A stretch of DNA of 13,719 bases from a virus. Its lineage: Duplodnaviria > Heunggongvirae > Uroviricota > Caudoviricetes. The DNA is taken from IMG/VR virus record IMGVR_UViG_2850761752_000002; one strand, written 5' to 3'. The notes below the pieces were generated by a model. The model ran no database searches, was not told where the DNA came from, and saw only the letters and a program-made list of their open reading frames with translations. The position numbers and the translations under genes were made by a program. Shown in pieces: positions 3,667-3,888 of the stretch (position 1 is its first letter; each line of letters starts with the position of its first letter).

Positions 3667-3746
3667 AAAAAAAGCCCGCGCTGGGAGACGCGGGCGGCAA
3701 GGAATAAACAATAAAACGTGAAGTAATATTTCAGCTGGCGAATAAT
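3667..3746 (-). ncRNA. Candidate small leftward transcript (promoter plus terminator, no ORF)
   Basis: On the minus strand: -35 TTGCGC (plus 3765-3770), 18-bp spacer, -10 TATTAT (plus 3741-3746), then a GC hairpin GCCCGCG-N8-CGCGGGC followed by T7 (plus 3667-3695). Confidence 0.25.
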
Positions 3747-3888
3747 ACCCCATAGTAGTCACTCTGCGCAACTGCGCGGTCTTTTTCGAATTGCGGGCTG
3801 TCGTCTCTCTTCTGCCATTGTCCTGTAACTTCCGGACTTCAGCCCGCTCCTCATTTTACTCACAATATTATCCCGGCCGGGAGGATTC

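Follow-up and report, generated by a model that had tools for sequence, protein, structure and literature searches.

The window analysed here (13,719 nucleotides (nt) of DNA, IMG/VR record IMGVR_UViG_2850761752_000002) is a decayed lambdoid prophage that lacks Q and PR'. Between its moron (stx) site and an esterase gene, the minus strand carries a short unit, 3771 to 3667, consisting of a pair of promoter-like hexamers, a U/G-rich stretch and an intrinsic terminator. The unit is already known: it is EcOnc08/21/42 of enterohaemorrhagic Escherichia coli (EHEC) and a candidate from RNA interaction by ligation and sequencing (RIL-seq) in enteropathogenic E. coli (EPEC), and it has neither a name of its own nor an Rfam family. 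Most probably it is the window copy of an EcOnc08-type small RNA (sRNA), the leftward member of a convergent sRNA dyad, with a putative internal promoter and a putative base-pairing role. Coordinates of all features are given in Table 1.

Identity with published RNAs

The window region is collinear with prophage Sp4 of E. coli O157:H7 Sakai in a gap-free alignment; window positions equal Sakai positions minus 1,176,269 (NC_002695.2). Binding sites of Hfq in Sakai have been mapped by crosslinking and analysis of cDNA (CRAC), with peaks listed on NC_002695.1 coordinates (Tree et al., 2014, PMC4104026, Table S2). On the window, the peak of EcOnc08 falls at 3669-3741(-) and that of EcOnc21 at 3747-3832(-), and EcOnc05 lies inside STnc100. 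The coordinate offset at Sp4 is 0 to 1 nt, because a read labelled EcOnc21 (1180127-1180103) from RNase E crosslinking followed by ligation and by sequencing of the hybrids (CLASH) carries the sequence of window 3854-3835. Judged by where Rfam places AsxR and AgvB, NC_002695.1 and NC_002695.2 are offset from each other by ~135 nt at Sp5, Sp9 and Sp10, so that an overlay of Table S2 on the current RefSeq sequence misplaces AsxR, AgvB, and EcOnc27.

Model R1 scores 102.8 bits at window 3667-3736 and 105.2 bits for the Sp4 copy. The window unit has the terminator, seed, and hexamers of EcOnc08/21/42 and lies, as they do, between STnc100/EcOnc05 and the esterase gene. It differs from the Sp4 copy at ~12 positions in 3660-3790, including a G-to-A exchange at 3712 in the seed and four changes in the spacer, and it resides in a prophage remnant, unlike the Sp4 and Sp15 homologues of Sakai. 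A 2021 review entered EcOnc42/21/08 with targets "unknown".

The EPEC counterpart is the RIL-seq candidate "E2348C_1409.E2348C_1408.IGR" (Pearl Mizrahi et al., 2021, PMC8550237, Sci Adv, Fig. S5B). Its printed sequence, allowing for text-extraction noise, reads CACGUUUUGUUGUU...CUUGC...CCCGCGUCUCCCUGCGCGGGCUUUUUUU and matches the window sRNA, and prophage PP6 of EPEC E2348/69 contains an exact 70-nt EcOnc08-type copy (NC_011601 1444797-1444866, minus strand) between ISEc13 and an esterase-like gene. The candidate stands outside the five northern-verified candidates PasA to PasD2; in the study it was handled as an Hfq sRNA that acts in trans, and the motif of its targets is complementary to the bases immediately 5' of the terminator (Pearl Mizrahi et al., 2021).

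Other identities were rejected. PasA (84 nt, processed from a longer transcript) and PasD are ruled out, since their sequences printed in Fig. S5 are unrelated. A match to OmrA-B (RF00079) scored 25.2 bits against a gathering threshold of 40 and was driven by the terminator; in Sakai the 5' part of the alignment is not conserved. Rfam searches at the gathering score and at E ≤ 10 gave no AgvB, AsxR, or Esr41 match in 3400-3900. A separate observation concerns E2348/69 contig L206, where the EcOnc08-type covariance model finds a weak match (23.6 bits, E ~1e-4) at 26262-26335(-), corresponding to NC_011601 ~1466261-1466334. This is the published PasB locus, which has CUUCAC and a CCCGC/GCGGG terminator in common with the model; the match may reflect distant relatedness or chance.

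The terminator and the convergent dyad

An earlier note, made from the sequence alone, had described the unit as a -35 hexamer, an 18-nt spacer, a -10 hexamer, a GC-rich hairpin, and T7. All of these are present within one base of the positions it gave; the interval itself ended at 3770, one base short of the -35, which starts at 3771. Its statement that the unit holds no credible open reading frame agrees with what is found there, a single frame of 67 aa with a TTG start (3568-3771) that spans both terminators.

The hairpin begins 46 nt past the -10 hexamer and ranks first in a terminator scan. Its arms, GCCCGCG (3695-3689) and CGCGGGC (3680-3674), enclose a loop of 8 nt, or 6 nt if a U·G pair is counted. 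Terminator-like sites are frequent in the surrounding 1.2-kb region, with six found against 1.3 ± 1.0 in shuffled sequences. The folding that the earlier note had proposed as a check gave a strong terminator and an unstructured 5' part: the 69-nt RNA predicted here has a folding energy of -17.9 kcal/mol (z = -2.96), stable pairing is confined to the terminator, and the 5' 40 nt are open.

The stem covaries among homologues, reading GCCCGCA/UGCGGGC in L159 and AACCGCUC/GAGCGGUU in L049. In a model-based alignment, which is fitted to the structure and therefore biases the counts towards it, 96% of cells are paired and three of the eight pairs are altered on both sides; none of 500 shuffles matched the observed covariation, and slid controls collapse. 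All variants keep a tail of six to eight T, and one CLASH read ends inside the T run, at about window 3671-3672. The arrangement expected of Hfq-dependent sRNAs, a GC-rich hairpin followed by at least six U, is found here as 8 bp and U7, and the U-tail is likely the site for the proximal face of Hfq.

The plus-strand hairpin that the earlier note had placed beside the unit at 3637-3656 does exist, at 3636-3655, and has an owner that the note did not recognize: it is the terminator of STnc100, so the two RNAs are convergent and end tail to tail. On the STnc100 side, one CLASH read carries an oligo-A tail and has its end at window ~3659. A minus-strand RNA bound by Hfq, in the window or its homologues, has its 3' end at the terminator 3695-3667, opposite the end of STnc100. 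Such "convergent sRNAs" have been described at the moron site of Sp3, Sp4, Sp9, Sp10, Sp11, Sp15, and Sp17 (Tree et al., 2014), and the "convergent sRNA dyad" arrangement appears both there and in the 2021 review. The unit is the leftward member of this dyad, which in lambdoid prophages is flanked by the moron (stx) site and the esterase gene.

STnc100, known also as EcOnc27, sRNA103, or PasD, belongs to the same dyad module and adjoins every EcOnc08-type copy examined, but is a separate, highly structured RNA of about 190-210 nt on the opposite strand. In PP6 of E2348/69 (L206 4480-4700), STnc100 is truncated on its 5' side by ISEc13; the EcOnc08-type sRNA is seen there by RIL-seq, so an intact partner is unnecessary. 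At 12442-13655 of the IMG/VR contig L049, two EcOnc08-type sRNAs (one divergent) and three tandem STnc100 copies lie upstream of one esterase gene, from which it follows that the dyad can duplicate as a module.

Distribution and conservation

The distribution was surveyed in complete E. coli genomes and in IMG/VR. The element occurs in 987 of the 5426 complete genomes (about 18%) as 1395 copies, with at most four per genome; identity is 90% or higher throughout, and no copy is annotated. It adjoins stx1 in Stx1 phages and persists in decayed prophages. A scan of a separate genome-contig collection with a 23-mer gave no match.

The sequence comparison used 57 distinct variants of 373 nt, taken from IMG/VR and Sakai by means of the 23-mer at 3739-3717. 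Both hexamers are invariant among them; the spacer varies at five positions, without insertion or deletion. The earlier note had named failure of hairpin and hexamers to be conserved in homologous prophages as grounds for abandoning its reading; both are conserved, the stem with compensatory changes. In one IMG/VR sequence (L063), the end of an IS1 insertion sequence (IS) lies inside the sRNA directly after CACGUUUUG; its sequence is that of the window's own IS1 at about 2091.

The putative internal promoter

On the minus strand upstream of AsxR (Sp5), AgvB1 (Sp10), and EcOnc03 (Sp9), the sequence CAGCCCG...CGAAAAAGGCCGCGCAGTTGCGCAG is common to these loci and the window, and the -35 TTGCGC together with its upstream flank is identical in all four. 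After this -35 both the sister loci and the window have an 18-nt spacer, which leads to TAAAAT in the former and to TATTAT in the latter. The transcription start sites of AsxR, AgvB, and EcOnc03 were mapped by RNA ligase-mediated rapid amplification of cDNA ends dependent on tobacco acid pyrophosphatase, and the RNAs were cloned from CGAT..., 6 nt past the -10 (Tree et al., 2014). By alignment, the window hexamers are positional homologues of this mapped promoter, a relation that is new here. Promoter activity is plausible by homology; a start at A3736 or G3735 would give an RNA of 66-70 nt.

The hexamers are also preserved where their surroundings have changed. In 18 distinct aligned promoter variants they are identical at 12/12 positions and the spacer has no insertion or deletion. 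Compared with the Sp4 copy, L147 differs at 0/12 hexamer, 9/18 spacer, and 5/13 leader positions, and the second L049 copy at 0/12, 5/18, and 5/13. The overlapping plus-strand hairpin at 3764-3787 is kept at the AsxR, AgvB, and EcOnc03 loci and missing upstream of the second L049 copy; because sequence upstream of the -35 is unrelated in that copy, the -35 is kept there without the hairpin. The hairpin itself reads CTGCGC-AACT-GCGCGG followed by TCTTTTT, and could serve as a second stop for plus-strand transcription that reads through STnc100.

The seed and its partners

The segment between the putative start and the terminator is largely unpaired in the predicted fold and is conserved, as expected of a seed. 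Its core CUUCACGUUUUGUU.UUUAUUCCUUGCC is kept in divergent copies, and the most divergent copies differ from the Sp4 copy at two to seven of 33 seed positions, compared with five to nine of 18 spacer positions. At 3712 the seed is polymorphic, with G in Sakai and E2348/69 (UUUUGUUG) and A in the window (UUUUAUUG); among the 57 variants G occurs in 36 and A in 21, and the exchange could change target specificity.

The leftward RNA of homologous prophages forms chimeras with other RNAs on both Hfq and RNase E. RNase E-CLASH chimeras contain the seed, as segments UUACUUCACGUUUUGUUGU and UUUAUUCCUUGCC joined to yodD, yegP, csgD, and sppA. In RIL-seq, the target set has a motif complementary to CUUGCG (also CUUGC(C)G; MEME E = 0.0096; Pearl Mizrahi et al., 2021). 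Candidate pairing segments of the sRNA are CUUGCC and UUGUUGUUU. The CLASH chimeras show that pairing is possible, not that it regulates, and csgD, yegP, yodD, and sppA are not accepted as targets. A further likeness was set aside: UUACUUCACGU, at window 3726-3716 (minus strand), is an 11-nt identity with Spot 42 (whose sequence was confirmed at 100% against genomes); it falls mostly inside the first hairpin of Spot 42, outside its seed region, and is probably a coincidence.

In the proposed mechanism, TTGCGC-18-TATTAT would act as an internal σ70 promoter, homologous to that of AsxR and AgvB, and start an sRNA of ~66-70 nt at about 3736. The unstructured U/G-rich 5' part (CUUCACGUUUU(A/G)UUGUUUAUUCCUUGCC) would base-pair with targets, assisted by Hfq bound to the U-tail. 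A longer form would additionally act in cis as antisense to the 5' untranslated region (UTR) of the esterase gene. Phage lambda makes a short leftward RNA, OOP, from a promoter of its own; it ends at an intrinsic terminator and is antisense to a gene transcribed rightward. The long form may be a functional analogue of OOP through its overlap with the esterase 5' UTR, with presumed cis-antisense action, although the two are unrelated in sequence and occupy different genome positions.

Alternative explanations

Several observations weigh against an internal promoter and a regulatory role. The hexamers match the σ70 consensus at 8/12 positions, below the promoter-scan threshold, and their 18-nt spacer is suboptimal for σ70. 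Within 550 nt, a relaxed scan of the minus strand finds six comparable hexamer pairs; the hexamers alone do not exceed chance, and it is homology and conservation that support them. The overlapping plus-strand hairpin or recent common ancestry could account for part of the -35 conservation. Promoter prediction, which the earlier note had suggested, gives a divided answer, with homologous and invariant hexamers on one side and a scan score below threshold on the other. The sole northern result is a band of "~271 nt" (EcOnc08/21/42; Tree et al., 2014, Table S2), obtained with a probe blind to a ~70-nt RNA starting at ~3736. Two CLASH chimeras start with AUAUUAUUCGCCAGCUGAAA at 3748 and so include the -10. 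As to targets, each of the chimeras with csgD, yegP, yodD, and sppA is a single read, csgD and yegP, the two partners that could be located, are joined inside their coding sequences (at +218 and +58), and the evidence consists of chimeric reads and a MEME motif.

The strongest rival takes up these points. It holds that the ~271-nt transcript is the sole product and starts from a promoter within, or close to, the esterase gene's 5' end, that any species of ~70-85 nt is a 3' piece set free by RNase E, and that the hexamers are what is left, as an inactive relic, of an AsxR-type promoter. The northern probe AATAATATCCGACAGTAATCACTCTGCGCAATAGC is the plus-strand sequence of the window equivalent of 3741-3775, the putative -35 to -10 region itself, so a longer leftward RNA must read through the hexamers. 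Likewise, the CLASH reads that include TATTAT place part of the pool bound by Hfq and RNase E in a longer precursor; further reads extend to window ~3859, and the EcOnc08 CRAC peak reaches 5-6 nt further upstream than the predicted start. A ~271-nt RNA ending at ~3670 would start near 3940 and be antisense to the Shine-Dalgarno sequence and start codon (3889) of the esterase gene; its 5' end is placed between about 3860 and 3940, which makes the esterase 5' UTR, and possibly the start codon, antisense to it. Near ~3940, however, no convincing σ70 promoter was found for this form, and weak candidates have -10s ending at 3905 and 3867. Against this rival stand also the hexamers and their 18-nt spacing, which are invariant while neighbouring bases have diverged, as well as the sister loci, where the same upstream region yields primary transcripts of 51-60 nt from the homologous promoter. 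A long transcript as the only product is accordingly judged unlikely, though it is the alternative to be taken most seriously, and the short form could arise by processing of a longer RNA. Of what the earlier note had proposed, a leftward non-coding RNA ending at the terminator is borne out by Hfq-CRAC in EHEC and RIL-seq in EPEC; the ~70-nt primary form started from the hexamers is what we infer.

Less likely still is that the RNA is an anti-sRNA, or sponge, directed against an sRNA of the core genome, as AgvB is against GcvB and AsxR against FnrS, rather than a regulator of mRNAs. Slot, promoter, and dyad partner are the same as for these anti-sRNAs, and related groups have been proposed among the sRNAs at the moron site (Tree et al., 2014). 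The likeness to AsxR, AgvB, and EcOnc03 (RF02702/RF02703) covers the slot, on the opposite strand to STnc100 and adjoining its 3' end, the promoter format (TTGCGC, an 18-nt spacer, TAnnAT), and the product, a short, terminator-ended, Hfq-bound RNA. It does not extend to body or terminator: the bodies do not align, the conserved ~42-nt 3' region of the anti-sRNAs is absent, and Rfam finds no AgvB or AsxR match even at E = 10. The predicted window RNA is longer (66-70 nt, compared with 51-60 nt), and its seed is U/G-rich, whereas that of AsxR, AgvB, and EcOnc03 is a C/A-rich target mimic. The readable CLASH partners are mRNAs, the RIL-seq analysis classed the RNA as an sRNA with a shared target motif, and no complementary core sRNA was identified, although no systematic core-sRNA screen was made.

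According to a further rival, the unit contains no functional RNA gene: the hairpin would be half of a bidirectional terminator that insulates STnc100 and the late operon, and the hexamers would match by chance. This would suit two terminators lying tail to tail 18 nt apart in a region where similar hexamer pairs are common, but it is highly improbable and largely refuted by published Hfq data (binding in 5/5 CRAC data sets, chimeras in RIL-seq and CLASH), and it does not account for a conserved single-stranded seed upstream of the hairpin, invariant hexamers, the presence of the element in 987 of the 5426 complete genomes of E. coli, or its retention in decayed prophages.

A possibly modular slot

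Downstream of the -35, the sequences of the window and of AsxR, AgvB, and EcOnc03 are unrelated; a common promoter stub followed by unrelated sequence indicates that the slot holds alternative sRNA bodies, and a sample of IMG/VR contigs has at least six alleles there. A tentative extension is that the slot is both modular and dual in output. The promoter stub would serve interchangeable bodies, exchanged at recombination breakpoints inside the promoter and at the STnc100 terminator, and the EcOnc08-type allele would produce, besides a ~70-nt sRNA acting in trans from the internal promoter, a ~271-nt RNA acting in cis as antisense to the esterase 5' UTR.

Prophage context

The tRNA-sRNA dyad region is intact despite the decay of the prophage around it. 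Just upstream of the three tRNAs lies a promoter-like TTGAAG-17-TATTAT at 3112-3140 (plus strand), in agreement with a tRNA promoter found by differential RNA sequencing in a Stx2 phage (Sy, 2020), and just after them a strong terminator (hairpin and T9) at 3414-3440 (plus strand). The upstream segment of the long leftward RNA takes in the EcOnc21-equivalent Hfq peak, EcOnc21/42 being the upstream part of EcOnc08, and within this segment 3846-3839 pairs with 3800-3793 in a GCGGGCUG/CAGCCCGC stem. Beyond the esterase gene, a DUF1327 gene and a lysozyme gene lie between the first IS629 copy and the IS66-family transposase.

Table 1. Features of the leftward unit, its published counterparts, and the surrounding prophage (window positions unless stated otherwise)
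Feature	Position	Strand	Evidence or remark
-35 hexamer TTGCGC	3771-3766	-	Read directly in window sequence
Spacer, 18 nt	3765-3748	-	Between the two hexamers
-10 hexamer TATTAT	3747-3742	-	Read directly in window sequence
Predicted short sRNA, EcOnc08 homologue	3667-3736	-	Hfq-CRAC peak, model R1, E2348/69 copy
U/G-rich single-stranded seed region (UUACUUCACGUUUUAUUGUUUAUUCCUUGC)	3697-3726	-	Fold, conservation, CLASH
Intrinsic terminator hairpin, 8 bp including 7 G-C	3695-3674	-	Terminator scan and fold
T7 (U-tail), 3' end	3673-3667	-	Sequence and terminator scan
Upstream segment of longer (~271-nt) leftward RNA	3737-3860	-	Table S2, northern probe, CLASH reads
Terminator-like hairpin and T5	3764-3787	+	Terminator scan; overlaps minus-strand -35
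STnc100 (EcOnc05 homologue), terminator 3636-3655	3476-3666	+	Rfam RF02076, 139 bits
EcOnc08	Sakai 1179938-1180010	-	Hfq-CRAC in 5/5 data sets, Tree 2014 Table S2
EcOnc21	Sakai 1180016-1180101	-	Hfq-CRAC, Tree 2014 Table S2
EcOnc05	Sakai 1179806-1179914	+	Hfq-CRAC, Tree 2014 Table S2
EcOnc42	Stx1 phage Sp15		Homologue; Tree 2014 Table S2
DUF1737/SASA sialate O-acetylesterase (nanS-p type), cut to 359 aa	3889-4968	+	Pfam; alignment to Sp4 ECs_1088
tRNA-Ile2(CAT)/Arg/Arg	3150-3399		
DNA methylase, C-terminal remnant	2522-3109		
IS1	about 1324-2091		
Integrase	1-1107	-	Adjoins IS1 and the truncated DNA methylase
IS629, two inverted copies	5349-6616 and 12452-13719		99.9% identical
IS66-family transposase	11053-12327		

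Significance

New here are the homology of the putative promoter with that of AsxR and AgvB, the conserved seed, and the covarying terminator, which make a testable gene model out of a catalogue entry. They give reason to include this RNA in studies of how prophage sRNAs rewire regulation in EHEC, EPEC, and Shigella. The bodies found in the slot comprise AsxR, AgvB, EcOnc03, the EcOnc08 type, and no fewer than two other alleles; if the slot is indeed modular, phages could exchange which host pathway gets rewired.
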